Positions 43,427-64,000 are shown, numbered from the stretch's first letter. The stretch: 64,000 nucleotides of DNA from an uncultured Candidatus Rokubacteria bacterium (GCA_963708025.1 CAVPSB010000034.1:32001-96000); one strand, 5' to 3'. Program-made: numbers and translations. The notes: generated by a model from the letters alone, not told the origin.

Positions 43427-44221
43427 TCAGACGCCGCGGGAGCGGGCGTCTCGCAGCATGTCGATCAGGACCTGCCGGCTCTCCTCGGCGGTGGTGACCT
43501 GGCGGGGGAACGGAATGCGCGCGGCGTGGACGCGGTCGCCGTGCTTGATGCGGAGCTTGAAGCCGAGGCGATCCACGCCGACCATCGATGCCTCGTCGGC
43601 CTCGGCGCCGGCCAGGACGCGGGCGAAGGTGACCAGCGCGTCGGCGTGGTCCTGGTTCATGTGGCTCATGATGCCGGCGGCGACGTCGGCGAGCGGATCG
43701 GGGCCGGCGGTGCGGTATCCCTCGGCATCCACCCAGTCCATCGCCGCGAACCCCCCGACGACGTAGACGTCCTCGACCGCGAGGTGGTAGAAGGCGAAGT
43801 CCCGGAAGTCCATCCAGTAGGCGGCGTTCGGGTGGCGGGCCAGGTATGCGGCCCGGACGGCCTCGTCGCCGTCGATCCGCGTGGCCCGCCCCATCAGCGT
43901 GACCCGTCCGACGGCCAGCGGATCGCCGGGGCCGTCGGTCTCCGTCACCAGCAGGCTCGCCCGCGGGTCCGCGTGGAGGTTCTGGGTGTGCATGGCCAGC
44001 GTGCTGATCAGGAACAGCGGCTGGCCGGCCGCGTCGATCGCGTAGGGCATGACCGAGGCGAACGGATGCCCGGGGTGCTTGCGGGACAGGGTGGCCAGGG
44101 CGCCCGTTCGCCCCCGATGGACCAGCGTCCGGGCTCGCTCCGCGTAGCTCGGCTCCGGGACCGGCGGGGTCGCCGGCTCCGGCTCACCGGGCGGCCCGGC
44201 GTGGCGGTCCGGGCGGCTCAC
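43427..44221 (-). CDS. HugZ/pyridoxamine 5'-phosphate oxidase-like protein with DUF2470 domain
   Basis: 'LAMHTQNL..DPRASLLV', 'GGFA', 'HMNQDH', 'VDRLG'. Confidence 0.88.
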   Translation of the reverse strand: MSRPDRHAGPPGEPEPATPPVPEPSYAERARTLVHRGRTGALATLSRKHPGHPFASVMPYAIDAAGQPLFLISTLAMHTQNLHADPRASLLVTETDGPGDPLAVGRVTLMGRATRIDGDEAVRAAYLARHPNAAYWMDFRDFAFYHLAVEDVYVVGGFAAMDWVDAEGYRTAGPDPLADVAAGIMSHMNQDHADALVTFARVLAGAEADEASMVGVDRLGFKLRIKHGDRVHAARIPFPRQVTTAEESRQVLIDMLRDARSRGV

Positions 44222-45210
44222 CGCGCTGGCCTCGCCACGAAGCCCATCCGCTCGTACATCTGCCGCAGCGTGGGCGCCGAGACCGCCCGCGCCCGCTCGG
44301 CGCCGCGCGCGAGGAGGCGCCCGAGCTCCGCGGGGTCGTCCCGGAGCGCCTCGTAGCGCTTCCGGATCGGCTCCAGCAGCGCGATCACCGCCTCGCCCAC
44401 CTCCGCCTTGAACGTCCCGTAGCCCTGCCCCGCATAGCGGGTCTCGATCGCCTCGGGCGACTCGCCGGTCGCCACCGACAGGATCTCGATGAGGTTCGAG
44501 ATCCCCGCCTTGTCCGGGGCGCGCCGGACCTCACGGCCGGAGTCGGTCACCGCGCTCTTGAACTTCGCCCGGATGGTCTCCGGCGGGTCCAGGACCTGGA
44601 CGGTGCCCGCCGGCGTTCCGCCCGTCGTCAACATCTTCCGCGTGGGGTCCTGGAGGTCCATGACCCGGGCCCCCACCGCCGGGTACACGCCCTCGGGGAG
44701 GACGAACGTCTCGCCGAAGCGCGCGTTGAAGCGCGCCGCCACGTCGCGGGCCAGCTCGAGGTGCTGGCGCTGGTCGTCACCGATCGGGACGCGGTGGGTC
44801 TGGTAGAGGAGGATGTCGGCCGCCATCAGGACGGGGTAGGTGAAGAGCCCGACGGAGACGACTTCCTGCCGCTCGGCCTTGTCCTTGAACTGCGTCATCC
44901 GCCGCAGCTCGCCGAAGCTCGCGACGGCGCCGAGCAGCCAGGCGGCCTCGGCGTGGGCGGGGACGTGGCTCTGGGCGAAGACCGTGGAGCGCTCGGGATC
45001 GAGCCCGATGGCGAAGAGCATGGCGGCGAGGTCCAGCGTGCGGGTCCGGAGGTCTTCCGGGTCGTAGCCGACCGTGATCGAGTGGAGATCCACGATGCAG
45101 AAGAAGGCCTCCCCCTGCTCCTGCATCGCCGCGTACTGTCGAAAGCCGCCGGAGTAGTTGCCGAGGTGCTTTGCCCCGGTCGGCTGGATGCCCGAAAAGA
45201 TGCGCATCAC
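44218..45210 (-). CDS. trpS: Tryptophanyl-tRNA synthetase
   Basis: FSGIQPTG, HLGNY, YPVLMAADIL, GDDQRQHLE. Confidence 0.95.
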   Translation of the reverse strand: MMRIFSGIQPTGAKHLGNYSGGFRQYAAMQEQGEAFFCIVDLHSITVGYDPEDLRTRTLDLAAMLFAIGLDPERSTVFAQSHVPAHAEAAWLLGAVASFGELRRMTQFKDKAERQEVVSVGLFTYPVLMAADILLYQTHRVPIGDDQRQHLELARDVAARFNARFGETFVLPEGVYPAVGARVMDLQDPTRKMLTTGGTPAGTVQVLDPPETIRAKFKSAVTDSGREVRRAPDKAGISNLIEILSVATGESPEAIETRYAGQGYGTFKAEVGEAVIALLEPIRKRYEALRDDPAELGRLLARGAERARAVSAPTLRQMYERMGFVARPAR

Positions 45211-58763: not shown

Positions 58764-60497
58764 TCAGGGTCGGGGCTGACCGACGGGCCGTCGGCCGGCA
58801 TGGGCCCAGTCGAGCAGGCCGGCCAGCGGTCGCGTGTTCACCACCTGCTCCGGGCCGATCCAGGCCCGCCGGGCGGTCGCGATCCCGAGCTCGATGTGGT
58901 CCAGCTCCGACAGGTAGTGGGTGTCGGTGTCGATCGCGAGCGCGAGGCCGAGATCGCGGGCGCGGCGGGCGTGGGTGTCCTTGAGGTCCAGGCGCCACGG
59001 CGACGCGTTGATCTCGACCGCCTTCCCGTAGCGCCGGGCGGCGGCGAAGACCTGCTCGAGGTCCACGTCGTAGGGATCCCGGGAGCCGAGGAGCCGCCCG
59101 GTCGGATGGACGAGGATGCGGACGTGCGGGTTCTCGAGCGCGCGGCAGATCCGGGCGGTCATCTCGGGGCCGGGCTGCTTGAACCGGGAGTGAACGGCGG
59201 CCAGCACCACGTCCAGCTCGGCCAGCAGGTCGTCCGGGAAGTCGAGCGAGCCGTCGGCCAGGATGTCGCACTCGGAGCCGCTCAGGATGCGGATGCGGTG
59301 GCGCGGCTGGAGGGCACGGATCCGTCCGATCTGGTCGCGGAGCTGCTCGGGAGTGAGCCCGCGAGCGATGGTGGCCGAGCGGGAGTGGTCGGACACGATG
59401 ATGTACTCGTAGCCCCGCGCCTCGGCCGCCTCCACCAGCGCCTCGAGCGGGTGGTGGCCGTCCGACCACTCGGTGTGGGCGTGGAGGTCGCCGCGGATGT
59501 GGGCCACCTCGACCAGCGGGGGCAAGGCGCCGGCCAGCGCGGCCTCGATCTCGCCGGTGTCCTCGCGCAGCTCGGGCGGGATCCACGGCAGCCCCACCGC
59601 CGCGTAGACCTCCTCCTCGGTGCGCCCGGCGACGCGGCGGCCGGCGTCGTCGTAGACGCCGTACTCGCTGATCTTGAGCTTCCTCCGGACGGCCAGCTCC
59701 CGGAGCTTCACGTTGTGGTTCTTGGAGCCGGTGAAGTACTGGAGGGCGGCACCGAACGCCTCCGGCTCGACGACCCGCAGGTCGACCTGCAGGTTCTCAC
59801 GATGGCGGATCGAGGACTTGGTCTCGCCGCGGGCCAGCACCGAGGCCACCTGGGGCAGCCCCACGAACCGGTCGAGGACGGCGGCGGGCCGGTCGGAGGT
59901 GACCAGGATGTCGATGTCTCCCACGGTCTCGACCCGCCGGCGGAGCGAGCCGGCGATCTCGATCGCCCGGACCGGCGCCGACTCGCGTAGCGCGCGCACC
60001 AGGGCCTCGGCCAGGGGCAGCGCCCTGGCCAGCGGCATCCGCGCCTGCCCCAGCCGCCACGTCTCGATCCCGCGCAGGATGTTCTCGCAGGTCTTCTGGC
60101 GGATGCCGGGGACCTCCAGGATCGTTCCGGAGCGGCAGGCTTCCTCGAGCCCCTCGACCGAGTCGATGCCGAGGCGCTCGTGGAGGAGCTTCGCCGTCTT
60201 CGGCCCGACGCCCGGCAGGCTCATGAGCTGGCGGACACCGCGGGGCAGGCCCCGGCGCAGCTCCTCCAGGTAGCCCATGCTCCCGGTGTCGGCCCACTCG
60301 CGGATTTTGGCCGCCAGGTCGGCGCCGATGCCGGGGATCTTCTTCTTCGCCCGGAGCGCCTCGACGACGTCCTCGGCCAGGTTCTCGAGCTGGTCGGCGG
60401 CCCGGCGATAGGCGCGCACGCGGAAGACGTTGTCCTCGCGGATCTCCAGGAGGTCCGCGATCTCGTGGAAACACTCGGCCAGCTCGCGGTTGCGCAT
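58764..60497 (-). CDS. polX: DNA polymerase X / PHP 3'-5' exonuclease
   Basis: 'FRVRAY', 'GSLRR...GDIDIL', 'YFTGSK.HN', 'DLHAHTEWSDG', 'HPTGR'. Confidence 0.95.
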   Translation of the reverse strand: MRNRELAECFHEIADLLEIREDNVFRVRAYRRAADQLENLAEDVVEALRAKKKIPGIGADLAAKIREWADTGSMGYLEELRRGLPRGVRQLMSLPGVGPKTAKLLHERLGIDSVEGLEEACRSGTILEVPGIRQKTCENILRGIETWRLGQARMPLARALPLAEALVRALRESAPVRAIEIAGSLRRRVETVGDIDILVTSDRPAAVLDRFVGLPQVASVLARGETKSSIRHRENLQVDLRVVEPEAFGAALQYFTGSKNHNVKLRELAVRRKLKISEYGVYDDAGRRVAGRTEEEVYAAVGLPWIPPELREDTGEIEAALAGALPPLVEVAHIRGDLHAHTEWSDGHHPLEALVEAAEARGYEYIIVSDHSRSATIARGLTPEQLRDQIGRIRALQPRHRIRILSGSECDILADGSLDFPDDLLAELDVVLAAVHSRFKQPGPEMTARICRALENPHVRILVHPTGRLLGSRDPYDVDLEQVFAAARRYGKAVEINASPWRLDLKDTHARRARDLGLALAIDTDTHYLSELDHIELGIATARRAWIGPEQVVNTRPLAGLLDWAHAGRRPVGQPRP

Positions 60498-60544
60498 CGC
60501 CCGTCGGTCCTCGCCCATGATACGCTGCGTCCCGGAGCTTCGCC

Positions 60545-61028: not shown

Positions 61029-61298
61029 ATGCCGGAGGATTCGACCCGCAAGCTCTTGAGGGTGTTCGGGGTGTCGATGACCCAGTGCGAGGATGCGCTG
61101 GCCGTGTTGACTCAGGCCCTTGCCACGCCGCCGACCGGGACGGAGGATCCGACGGCCGCACTGGAGGCGTACGGCAAGACGGCGCGCGAGCTGGCCGAGC
61201 GATGGGCCGAGGTGAGCCGGCTGGTCCTCGACTACCAGGTGCGCGCCCAGCAGGCCGTCGAGACATTCGTCCGCAGCCGCGGCGCGTCCCATCCATGA
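61029..61298 (+). CDS. Hypothetical helical protein
   Basis: GGGGAG RBS; ATGA-coupled to the next gene. Confidence 0.65.
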   Translation: MPEDSTRKLLRVFGVSMTQCEDALAVLTQALATPPTGTEDPTAALEAYGKTARELAERWAEVSRLVLDYQVRAQQAVETFVRSRGASHP

Positions 61299-61771
61299 CC
61301 GCGCGAGGCTCCCGCGGGGCGCTGGCCCTCGGACTCTTCCTCGCCGCGGGGTGCGCCGCCGCGCCCCCTCCGCCTCCGGCTCAGCCGACCGTGACCACGC
61401 CACCGCCCGCGGCCCCTCCGCCGGCGCCGGCCGCGCCGGTCGCCACGCCGCCGCCCCCAGCCGCGCTCCCCCCGACCGCCCCACCGCCAGCGCCGCCGCC
61501 GAGCGTGGTCGCACCGCCCCCGCCGCCCCCCCTTCCGGCGCCGGATGCGGAACAGCTGGCCAACGAGCAGCTGGCCGCGCGGGTCGAGCAAGCGCTGGCG
61601 GCCGATCCCGCCCTGCGGAGCGCCGTCATCGAGGCGGAGGCCCATGCCGGCCAGGTGACGCTGAAAGGCGTCGTGCCCACGTTCCGGGAGCGCGCCCGGG
61701 CGATCGAGCTGGCGCTCCAGGTTCCCGGGGTCAAGAGCGTGCGGCCTCGACTCGTCCTCCAGGCGCCGTGA
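61295..61771 (+). CDS. BON-domain lipoprotein with Pro-rich linker
   Basis: Lipobox LAAGC; 'GQVTLKG...A..VPGVKSV'. Confidence 0.85.
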   Translation: MTARGSRGALALGLFLAAGCAAAPPPPPAQPTVTTPPPAAPPPAPAAPVATPPPPAALPPTAPPPAPPPSVVAPPPPPPLPAPDAEQLANEQLAARVEQALAADPALRSAVIEAEAHAGQVTLKGVVPTFRERARAIELALQVPGVKSVRPRLVLQAP

Positions 61772-62589
61772 CCCGCGATCCTCTCGCGCGCCGGGATGCC
61801 AGCGGCGTCGAGGTCGCGCTCCCGCCGCGTCCCGCCCGGATCGTCTCCCTCGTCCCCAGCATCACCGAGTTGCTCTTCGACCTCGGGCTCGACGCGCGCA
61901 TCGTCGGCATCACGCGCTTCTGAATCGAGCCACGGGGCCGGGTGGCCTCGAAGGCGAAGGTCGGGAGGGAGAAGGACCCGGATGTCGCGAAGATCTGCGC
62001 GCTGTCGCCCGACCTCGTGGTTGCCAACATCGAGGAGAACCGACGCGACGTGGTCGAGCAGCTCCGCGGCGCGGGCATCCCGGTCTGGGTGACGTTCCCC
62101 CGCACCGTGCGCGACGGGATCCGGCTCATCCGCGAGCTGGGGGAGGTGGCCGGCGCCCGAGCCGAGGCGGAGGCGCTGGCGACCCCGCTCGAGGAGCGCT
62201 ACCAGGCGACGGTCTCGGCCACTGGCGGCCGGCCGGCCGCCCGCGTCTTCTGCCCGATCTGGCGCGGCCCGTACATGACCATCGGCCGCGACACGTACGT
62301 CCACGACATGCTCGCCGTCTGCGGGGGCGCCAGCGTCTTCGCCGATCGGCCGGAGCGTTACCCGACGGTGACCCTCGAGGAGGTGGCGGCGGCCGCCCCC
62401 GAGGTCATCCTGCTGCCCGACGAGCCGTTTCGGTTCCGGCCTCCGCACCGGGCGGACTTCGAGGCCTTCCCCGGGATGCCCGCGGTCGCGGCCGGCCGGA
62501 TCCGCTTCGTGGACGGGAAGCTGCTGTCCTGGTACGGCCGCCGGATCGGCGAGGCGCTGGAGCGCCTCCCGCCGCTACTCCGCGCCTAG
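61768..62589 (+). CDS. BtuF-like helical backbone metal receptor with in-frame TGA at codon 52 (candidate selenocysteine)
   Basis: 'RIVSLVPSITELLFDLG...GITRF*IEP...PDLVVANIEEN...DGKLLSWYG' all in one frame. Confidence 0.85.
61933..61950 (+). promoter_or_regulatory. Putative bacterial SECIS hairpin
   Basis: CGGGGCC-GGGT-GGCCTCG; 16 nt separate the TGA from the loop. Confidence 0.5.
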
Positions 62590-63107
62590 CGCAGCTCCAG
62601 GATCAGCTCCACCTCGACCGGCATGTTGCCCGCGAGGCCGCGGGCCGGGCGGAGCCAGACGACCGGCGGCGAGGTGGGGCCGAAGGCCCGACCGACCAGC
62701 GCGAGCGCGTCGCGGCAGAGATCGAGGCCGGGAGCGCCGTCCGCGGCATCGACGAAGCAGGTGAGCGCGACGCAGCGACGGGCGCCGGCCAGCGAGCCCA
62801 GGGCCGCCTGGGCGACGGCGAGGGCGTTGAGGGTGGCCAGGCGGAGGGCGGCGCGAGCCTGGCGTCGCGACACCTCGCGGCCGACCCGGCCGCGGTAGAC
62901 CAGGCGGCCGCCGGCTTCCGGGTCCTGGCCGGAGACGAACAGCAGGCCGCCCGCCGCCACGGCGGGGACGTACTGCGCCGTGGGGACGGGCGGCCGGGGC
63001 AGCCGGAGACGCGCGCGGCTAGCGGCGCCGGCGCGCGGCCGGTCGCTTCGGGCGGCTCGCCGCCTTGCGCGCGGGCGCTGTCTTGCGGGCAGCGGCCGCC
63101 GCGCCAT
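62586..63107 (-). CDS. Divergent RidA/YjgF family protein (start uncertain)
   Basis: 'YVPAVAAGGLLFVSGQ', 'NMPVEVELILE'. Confidence 0.75.
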   Translation of the reverse strand: MARRPLPARQRPRARRRAARSDRPRAGAASRARLRLPRPPVPTAQYVPAVAAGGLLFVSGQDPEAGGRLVYRGRVGREVSRRQARAALRLATLNALAVAQAALGSLAGARRCVALTCFVDAADGAPGLDLCRDALALVGRAFGPTSPPVVWLRPARGLAGNMPVEVELILELR

Positions 63108-63564
63108 CGCTGACCTCCAGGATCATCTCGATCTCCACCGAGATGCCCATCGGCAGCTCGGCCATCCCGACCGCCGAGCGGGCGTGGCGGCCCGCCTCGC
63201 CGAACACATCCACCATCAGGTCGGAGAAGCCGTTGACGACCTTGGGCTGATCGCCGAACCCGCTGGCCGAGTTCACCATGCCGAGCACCTTCACCACCCG
63301 CTTCACGCGGTCGAGGCTCCCCAGGGCTTCCCGGGCGGAGGAGAGCAGGTTCAGCCCGACCAGCCGCGCCGATTGCGCTCCCTCCTCGACCGAGAGCTGG
63401 CTGCCGACCTTGCCGATGAAGCTCAGCTTGCCGTCCTTGTGGGGGCCGTGGCCGGAGAGGAAGAGCAGGTTGCCGACCCGCACCGCGCGAACGTAGTTCG
63501 CCATCGCCGGCGGTGCCGCGGGAAGCTCGATTCCGAGTTGCTTCAGCTTGGCCTCTGCGCCCAT
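63019..63564 (-). CDS. RidA/YjgF family protein with basic C-terminal tail
   Basis: 'ANYVRAVRVGNLLFLSG', 'GRHARSAVG', 'VEIEMI'. Confidence 0.92.
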   Translation of the reverse strand: MGAEAKLKQLGIELPAAPPAMANYVRAVRVGNLLFLSGHGPHKDGKLSFIGKVGSQLSVEEGAQSARLVGLNLLSSAREALGSLDRVKRVVKVLGMVNSASGFGDQPKVVNGFSDLMVDVFGEAGRHARSAVGMAELPMGISVEIEMILEVSDGAAAAARKTAPARKAASRPKRPAARRRR

Positions 63565-63729
63565 GATCTCGCCTCCTGGCTCGTGGGACTCGGTCGGATG
63601 GTAGGATGGCCGCGACAGCGGACCCATCCTAGGGGGGCGCTCAGGACGTGTCAAGCGGCGGGCCGTCCGCAGCGGGCCGTCCGTGAGGAGGCGCACACGA
63701 GCCAGGCGCAAGGCGGGCAGCGAGGGGAG

Positions 63730-64000
63730 CGAGGTGGTCAGCCGGGCGGAAAGCCGCCGGTCGTCGCGCGCGAGGCGGCGACGGTCGTGCTGGCCCGTGA
63801 CGGCGCGGCCGGCGTCGAGGTGCTGCTGCTCGAGCGGCACCCGGGCAATCGCATGGCGCCGGGCGCCCACGCGTTTCCCGGGGGGCGCGTCGAGGCGAGC
63901 GACGCGCCGCCCGACGCCGACCGGCTCTGCCGGGGGCTGACCACCGCGGCCGCCGCCGCCAGCCTCCGGACCGTGACGCCCCCGGAGCGGGCCATCGGCT
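63730..64000 (+). CDS. NUDIX hydrolase, 3' partial (start uncertain)
   Basis: Frame +1 reads 'REAATVVLARDGAAGVEVLLLER...FPGGRVEASD'. Confidence 0.75.

Follow-up and report, generated by a model that had tools for sequence, protein, structure and literature searches.

A predicted selenocysteine codon at a near-invariant cysteine site of a BtuF/TroA-like binding protein in an uncultured Candidatus Rokubacteria bacterium

When a stretch of 64,000 nucleotides from an uncultured Candidatus Rokubacteria bacterium (GCA_963708025.1, CAVPSB010000034.1:32001-96000; hereafter the window, to which all positions without a contig name refer) was translated, a gene for a BtuF/TroA-like binding protein (61768..62589, plus strand) was found to contain an in-frame TGA. 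The question raised by this locus is whether the codon ends the protein or is read as selenocysteine (Sec). The frame starts with GTG at 61768, is interrupted by a single TGA (61921-61923, codon 52; local reading IVGITRF*IEP) and continues to the next stop, TAG at 62587-62589, with 273 sense positions when the TGA is read through. This translation matches the frame and length given in an earlier, sequence-only reading of the window, in which the UGA was proposed to encode Sec. We concluded that the gene very probably encodes a 273-residue selenoprotein, and that it is a real gene which has been mis-annotated. This conclusion is drawn because the TGA lies at a near-invariant cysteine (Cys) column, because TGA and Cys codons alternate within the order, and because the full Sec machinery is present.

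Cysteine and TGA codons at residue 52

The read-through protein was searched against 61 related genomes (Rokubacteria/Methylomirabilota), and 60 of them had a match. One TGA was observed in the best match of 12 genomes (G000, G001, G002, G003, G005, G006, G014, G019, G023, G024, G025 and G045) and a TAA in that of one other; the remaining best matches were free of stops. Two genomes flagged as unpublished (G038 and G055) were counted in the genome tallies only, and neither has a TGA form. The ortholog matches span residues 3-273 across the TGA. Downstream of it the protein shares 57-80 % identity with the orthologs and has no further stops. The 51 codons before it show the same degree of conservation as the remainder of the gene and are in frame in all TGA-bearing orthologs; they encode the signature S-L-V-P-S-x-T-E of the family, together with the strands with which the N-terminal lobe (N-lobe) begins.

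The codon aligned with residue 52 was tallied in 110 loci, 30 from the genome search and 80 from a public-record search, with some records present twice. It is TGA in 20 loci, TGC in 75 and TGT in 15 (90 Cys codons). When identical segments were removed, 14 distinct TGA and 71 distinct Cys sequences remained, and two further TGA forms (L133 and L134; genomes G045 and, as a partial sequence, G014) bring the distinct TGA sequences to 16. Both codon types thus occur at exactly the residue-52 column, and a paralog of the same genomes, 37-40 % identical, also has Cys there. Judged from these alignments, the alternation of TGA with TGC or TGT is the classic pattern of a Sec/Cys pair.

A profile built from 17 orthologs was then run against 1.84 billion representative proteins, which gave a family of 14,653 representatives at E-values of 1e-10 or lower. 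The best 150 were examined. Cys occupies the residue-52 column in 143 of the 144 representatives that cover it, in the motif G-x-T-x-[FYW]-C-x-x-P (C/U at the sixth position when the TGA forms are included); the sequence-only reading had given the family Cys in the form 'G(V/I)T.(F/Y)C..P'. Three positions before Cys/Sec, Thr is found in all 23 TGA rows (20 + 3), which defines the motif as TxxU. At the same position the 143 Cys representatives have T in 139, S in four and C in none; Cys at position -4 occurs in six. A TGA at such a column is, on the aligned sequences, beyond what chance would be expected to place there, unlike the hairpin that follows it when taken alone.

The six representatives among the best 150 that do not cover the column start just after it, which is what truncated calls of TGA forms would look like. 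The same truncation is common in the databases: many entries have 214-230 residues and cover only 75-79 % of the full-length query, two representatives (P0002 and P0071) start just after the TGA, and NCBI records of TGA-bearing relatives have 215-221 residues under the name 'ABC transporter substrate-binding protein'. In the window, the usual gene-caller product replacing the full gene is a 215-residue open reading frame (61942..62589, plus strand) whose GTG lies within the loop of the hairpin. As a result of such annotation, strands of the N-lobe and the key residue are missing from the databases. Five representatives from other 50 %-identity clusters (P0142, P0243, P0260, P0281 and P0282) have 150-220 residues with N-termini just past the Cys column, and probably represent additional Sec forms, likewise truncated, from other lineages. 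P0246, in which the column is likewise not covered, is apparently fused to a LuxR-type response regulator and may be a chimera.

All of selA, selB, selC and selD were located in the source genome (G000; 8.17 Mb, 49 contigs, estimated contamination 8.18 %), with scores above the curated cut-offs. The tRNA-Sec (76.2 bits; ARAGORN call SeC (tca)) is adjoined on contig 32 by selA (597.8 bits) and selB (371.9 bits), the selB-selA-tRNA-Sec cluster lying within 5 kb. The selD gene (398.4 bits) has its own in-frame TGA at the usual G-A-G-U position. In the 61 genomes, selA is present in 52; of the 12 genomes that have a TGA form, 10 carry it. No selA was found in G024 (89 % complete), which has tRNA-Sec and a TGA-bearing selD; the other genome, G025, is considered below. 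In the accessible part of a review (PMC13188914), a Methylomirabilota genome is predicted to have 63 selenoprotein genes, so that Sec-rich genomes are on record in Methylomirabilota.

Two side observations concern selD. The TGA of the source-genome gene (L046:1501-2424, contig 7) lies at a G-A-G-U-A-C-K site, and a second, stop-free selD-like match was found on contig 23 (88505-89419) in an open frame of 833 codons, possibly a fusion protein.

The TGA itself is also retained in independent assemblies. Contigs from three studies span the site, covering 61500-62411 (24 differences), 61606-62267 (16 differences) and 61861-62047 (two differences), and none of the listed differences falls within 61921-61923 or 61933-61950, the nearest being A>C at 61932; one of the three covering runs may be the source sample. 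The run recorded as RNA gave one contig, limited to 62369-62589 at a depth of 2, which does not show that the Sec region is transcribed.

A maximum-likelihood tree (quick search, with support from the Shimodaira-Hasegawa-like approximate likelihood ratio test) was drawn for 15 Sec forms, 72 Cys forms and four outgroup paralogs; the partial G014 sequence (fewer than 200 residues) was left out. The Sec state requires a minimum of six changes on this tree, of which only two are forced by well-supported branches. Sec forms are scattered over several positions, and the basal lineages and the outgroup have Cys. This agrees with the pattern described, in the accessible part of the paper, for selenoproteins that are rare while their Cys homologs are widespread, namely Cys ancestry in hosts that already decode Sec (PMC1794560).

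Fold, ligand cleft and comparison with known receptors

The read-through protein matched PF01497 (E-value 2.5e-24, 86.4 bits) and the NCBIfam model NF038402 (TroA_like 'helical backbone metal receptor', 180.9 bits), in agreement with the backbone-receptor family proposed earlier. NF038402 is too broad for a subfamily assignment: it also scores in other organisms, E. coli and B. subtilis among them. When the protein was modelled with AlphaFold2 using a 17-sequence alignment, one two-lobed fold running across the TGA was predicted with confidence (mean predicted local distance difference test score 94.7, predicted template modelling score 0.90), with the two lobes joined by helix 131-152. The nearest solved structures in Foldseek were RhuT, BhuT and BtuF (E-values 4e-22 to 1e-19, template modelling (TM) scores 0.78-0.82), and the nearest by sequence profile were 4M7O, 5YSC and E. 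coli BtuF (BtuF E-values 2.8e-29 to 5.9e-25). On this model, the fold is that of the class III (TroA-like) binding proteins, nearest to BtuF and the heme receptors.

The residues aligned to the Cys/Sec column are Asp in 4M7O, Ser in BtuF, Ala in RhuT and Ser in PhuT. Residue 66 of BtuF, the Trp that is mutated in the cobinamide-bound structures 5M34, 5M3B and 5M2Q, aligns with a conserved Glu68. Next to the column lies Tyr50 of BtuF, which we take to contact B12. From these alignments, Sec52 is predicted to sit on one of two N-lobe loops lining the ligand cleft between the lobes; the position of BtuF Trp66 follows 16 residues later. Over 85 % of the 150 representatives share each of the residues K69, E89, E90, N91, R197, Y198, E219, W165 and W255. 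The cleft would thus be polar, unlike the aromatic B12 pocket, which argues against binding of B12 in the manner of BtuF. The 'metal/corrinoid-binding' function proposed in the sequence-only reading remains an inference, because BtuF Trp66 aligns with Glu here.

The earlier description of the protein as standalone and probably cytoplasmic was supported. By eye, no hydrophobic stretch typical of a signal peptide is seen at the N-terminus, and the full-length Cys orthologs (260-293 residues) have short, hydrophilic N-termini, also without a signal peptide. No ATP-binding cassette (ABC) permease, ATPase or other transporter gene was found within about 4 kb of the gene.

These features separate the protein from the receptors to which it is closest. 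BtuF, the periplasmic B12 receptor of the BtuCDF importer, is built on the same plan, with two lobes and a backbone helix (Vibrio cholerae 5YSC, E-value 1.9e-21, TM score 0.82-0.87; E. coli 1N4A and 1N2Z, E-value about 1e-19). However, BtuF is exported and works with BtuC and BtuD, whereas the present protein has no signal peptide and no BtuC or BtuD genes nearby; with the BtuF equivalog model NF002894, whose cut-off is 234, it reaches 80.2 bits. BtuF is also not a selenoprotein, having Ser at the Cys/Sec column and Trp66 in place of Glu68. The best structural matches are the heme receptors RhuT, BhuT, ShuT, PhuT and HmuT (5Y8B/5GJ3, 5GIZ, 2R7A, 2R79 and 3MD9), among which RhuT (Foldseek E-value 4.1e-22, TM score 0.80) is also the best N-lobe match by sequence (6.2e-08). 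Unlike the present protein, these receptors are exported; they have Ala (RhuT) or Ser (PhuT) at the Cys/Sec column, and their G-Y motif, whose Tyr presumably ligates iron, aligns with G-R/G-G here.

Sec in a substrate-binding protein is described, with a proposed role as metal or organometal ligand, for SaoB and SaoX (NF040727 and NF040735; Haft & Gwadz 2023, as presented in the accessible part of PMC13188914). These belong to different families, as neither model was among the NCBIfam matches of the present protein at E-values of 0.01 or lower, and their genes lie in transport operons, whereas the present gene does not.

The sequence-only reading had left it undecided whether this Sec family was already described. 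In the accessible parts of two reviews, a 'Cobalamin(-)binding protein BtuF' (cd01144) with a CxxU motif and one Sec is tabulated as a predicted selenoprotein, RUA21600.1 in one (PMC9312934, 2022) and MDE0719563.1 in the other (PMC13188914, 2026). Both reviews, which come from one group, cite Peng et al. 2016 (PMC5029168) as the source; no BtuF or cobalamin-binding entry was found in the main text and five supplementary files of that paper. The main texts of BSepDB and deep-Sep (supplements aside) do not mention a BtuF selenoprotein, and in a literature search for 'helical backbone metal receptor' with selenium the phrase was absent from the top-ranked papers. As far as the tabulated descriptions go, the catalogued protein resembles the present one in its BtuF-like class III domain, its single Sec, its status as a prediction only and its usually truncated records. 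It differs, by the motif given for it, in having CxxU instead of TxxU. Forms with different Sec motifs are treated as separate subfamilies in PMC13188914, to judge from its accessible part. Thus, the selenoprotein class is already catalogued as predicted, and the present clade adds a different motif (TxxU).

The candidate SECIS hairpin and competing explanations

A candidate bacterial Sec insertion sequence (SECIS) hairpin follows the UGA at 61933..61950 on the plus strand. It has seven base pairs, with a 5' arm CGGGGCC (61933-61939), a loop GGGU (61940-61943) and a 3' arm GGCCTCG (61944-61950), and the G and U of the loop lie at +19/+20 after the UGA. Its place, arms and loop were as described in the sequence-only reading; the spacing of 16 nucleotides given there is that of the loop, and the stem begins at nine nucleotides. 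When the region 61915-61975 was folded, an energy of -28.9 kcal/mol was obtained (z = -3.12), and two of 200 shuffled sequences folded as well.

Three stem types were observed at the same site in different clades of TGA forms, all with GGU at +18..+20. Type A (GGGCC or CGGGGCC with GGCC(U/G/C)...) belongs to the family of the source-gene sequence and type B (GAGACC/GGUCUC) to one lineage. Type C (GGAGGC/GCCUCC) is found in another clade, in which one member has CGAGGC/GCCUCG and one a G-U closing pair. Stems were scored with the requirement of a loop of 3-5 nucleotides containing G+19 and U+20. A closing stem of at least 4 bp is present in 14/14 distinct TGA forms vs 8/71 Cys forms, and one of at least 5 bp in 12/14 vs 1/71. 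The G-led loop expected of a SECIS element was therefore found in the TGA forms and is mostly absent from the Cys forms, although as evidence the hairpin is weaker than had been assumed. Several Sec/Cys switches within a single order of bacteria, with a separate hairpin in each case over a conserved peptide, would make this family a compact example of how coding sequence can accommodate a recoding signal.

A number of points weigh against the selenoprotein reading, and most of them concern this hairpin. Counted as independent lineages, the comparison of TGA with Cys forms comprises perhaps five or six cases and not 14 vs 71. In the source gene, 8 of 231 other codon positions precede a perfect stem of at least 7 bp in the same relative window, and in the 14 TGA-bearing orthologs an average of 19 % of other positions match the observed stem length. 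The core pairs are invariant within each clade, with double changes in one or two pairs, and covariation within two clades did not exceed that of shuffled alignments, 105/500 and 169/500 of which reached the observed score. RNAalifold did not find a common hairpin in 16 codon-aligned, ungapped TGA sequences, which we attribute to the clades using registers shifted by 1-3 nucleotides and not to a lack of structure. An Rfam scan of 61700-62200 gave no family match and a single match at chance level. The hairpin alone is thus only mildly unusual, short hairpins being common in this GC-rich DNA, and is only supporting evidence and not the main proof. Outside the hairpin, selA, selB and tRNA-Sec were not found in G025 (98 % complete by markers, 220 contigs) despite its TGA form. 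This genome does carry a TGA-bearing selD, and since the three missing genes form one 5-kb cluster in G000, a single missing contig could remove them all; G025 still counts against a clean correlation of machinery and TGA. The placement of Sec52 in the cleft comes from alignments to solved structures and not from model geometry, and the absence of an informative operon partner leaves the function as an inference only. Finally, Se incorporation itself is a prediction from sequence and model data.

If the TGA were instead a real stop, only the 215-residue product from the GTG at 61942 would be made, perhaps together with a 51-residue N-terminal peptide, as a split or truncated binding protein. 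Exactly this type of product is yielded by gene callers for many relatives, and Sec insertion in bacteria is generally known to compete with termination. Such a product is nevertheless very unlikely to be the whole story: the upstream 51 codons are equally conserved and in frame in all TGA-bearing orthologs, the shorter protein would lose the S-L-V-P-S-x-T-E part of the fold with the first N-lobe strands, and chance truncation does not explain a break at the sole near-invariant Cys. A further alternative is recoding of the UGA to something other than Sec, either by a near-cognate tRNA for Trp, Cys or Arg or by a Cys-charged tRNA resembling tRNA-Sec. Cys-inserting selC-like tRNAs have been reported in some bacteria, and the present data cannot chemically tell Sec from Cys insertion. 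However, a canonical tRNA-Sec adjoins selA and selB, selD is present, TGA is the ordinary stop of the neighbouring gene, and TGA/Cys codon alternation is the standard signature of Sec; we consider non-Sec recoding highly improbable.

A recent nonsense mutation, or an assembly error at base 61923, is scarcely credible given that 16 distinct ortholog sequences, spread over several genera, share this TGA, that contigs from three independent studies keep it, and that the downstream part is conserved in the orthologs without further stops. In favour of a mutation or error are other broken-looking genes in the genome, such as a paralog on contig 3 divided over two frames, and the contamination estimated for the bin. 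The reading of the UGA as Sec is therefore supported by the Sec/Cys homologs, the sel genes and the assemblies, with the hairpin in a supporting role; on each point that the sequence-only reading had named as able to refute it, the outcome favoured Sec.

Under the selenoprotein reading, the hairpin nine nucleotides past the UGA would recruit SelB carrying Sec-tRNA(Sec), and with the G-U of its apical loop at 19-20 nucleotides after the UGA, the ribosome would insert Sec without termination. The product would be expected to remain cytoplasmic, since it has neither a signal peptide nor a cognate ABC permease or ATPase. With a metal, metalloid or metal cofactor bound, the selenolate of Sec52 would most likely be its ligand or attack it as a nucleophile. 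The gene product may accordingly be described as a putative free-standing, cytoplasmic protein with a binding-protein fold and a predicted reactive Cys/Sec in its cleft.

More tentatively, the protein could represent a large, unrecognised cytoplasmic family that does not serve as a transport receptor, in which the cleft has been turned into a reactive site on the invariant T-x-x-C/U, with Cys or Sec as nucleophile or as Se/S ligand of a metal. We regard this as possible and rather doubtful. If it is true, the members could be, for example, chaperones of corrinoid or metal cofactors with a Co-Se/S bond, or metalloid-handling proteins, and the switching from Cys to Sec that recurs in Rokubacteria would be a sign of this cleft chemistry. 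Most selenoproteins resemble thiol oxidoreductases, and Sec in the cleft of a binding fold that is neither exported nor accompanied by a transporter would point to unexamined chemistry. Thousands of relatives share an invariant T-x-x-C, and a Cys ortholog would give easy access to this chemistry.

Neighbouring genes and minor observations

Upstream on the same strand lies a BON-domain gene (61085..61771; PF04972, E-value 4.4e-15). Its stop, TGA at 61769-61771, overlaps the GTG start of the selenoprotein gene in the sequence GTGA, which hints at coupled translation. Since this gene ends in TGA, TGA is an ordinary stop elsewhere in the source genome.

The other neighbours are on the minus strand and comprise genes for PolX, FKBP and two RidA-like proteins. 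The PolX-family DNA polymerase with a PHP domain (58764-60518) is transcribed divergently. The two RidA/YjgF-like open reading frames (62586-63107 and 63019-63870) overlap by about 89 nucleotides and may represent either two separate genes or a single one disrupted by a frameshift. Of all the neighbours, the second of these frames is the best conserved. Among the 110 related loci, a RidA-like gene occurs in 63, PolX in 36 and an upstream BON gene in 13. We also considered the gene neighbourhood as a clue to function. However, PolX and the RidA-like genes are syntenic on the opposite strand and BON is found in only 13 of the 110 loci, and we concluded that the neighbourhood is uninformative.

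Fusions were observed among the representatives (P0245, P0277, P0144, P0159, P0160 and others), to a DUF2064/MobA-like nucleotidyltransferase or to DUF1289, or as tandem double and triple copies of the domain. As clues to function these partners (one DUF2064/MobA-like, one DUF1289 and one response regulator) were too few.

Two homologs with other kinds of interruption were noted. The Cys-type ortholog on contig 137 of G042 (65331-66104; L135), with the motif G-C-T-I-Y-C, has one in-frame TAA elsewhere in the gene, which, unlike the TGA cases, probably reflects either a genuine disruption or an error. In the source genome, the paralog on contig 3 (about 44152-44944; L039:1290-2088) is of the GVTDFCDFP type with Cys at the same column. 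It is divided over two reading frames about seven nucleotides apart, and is either a frameshifted pseudogene or the product of an indel error in the assembly.

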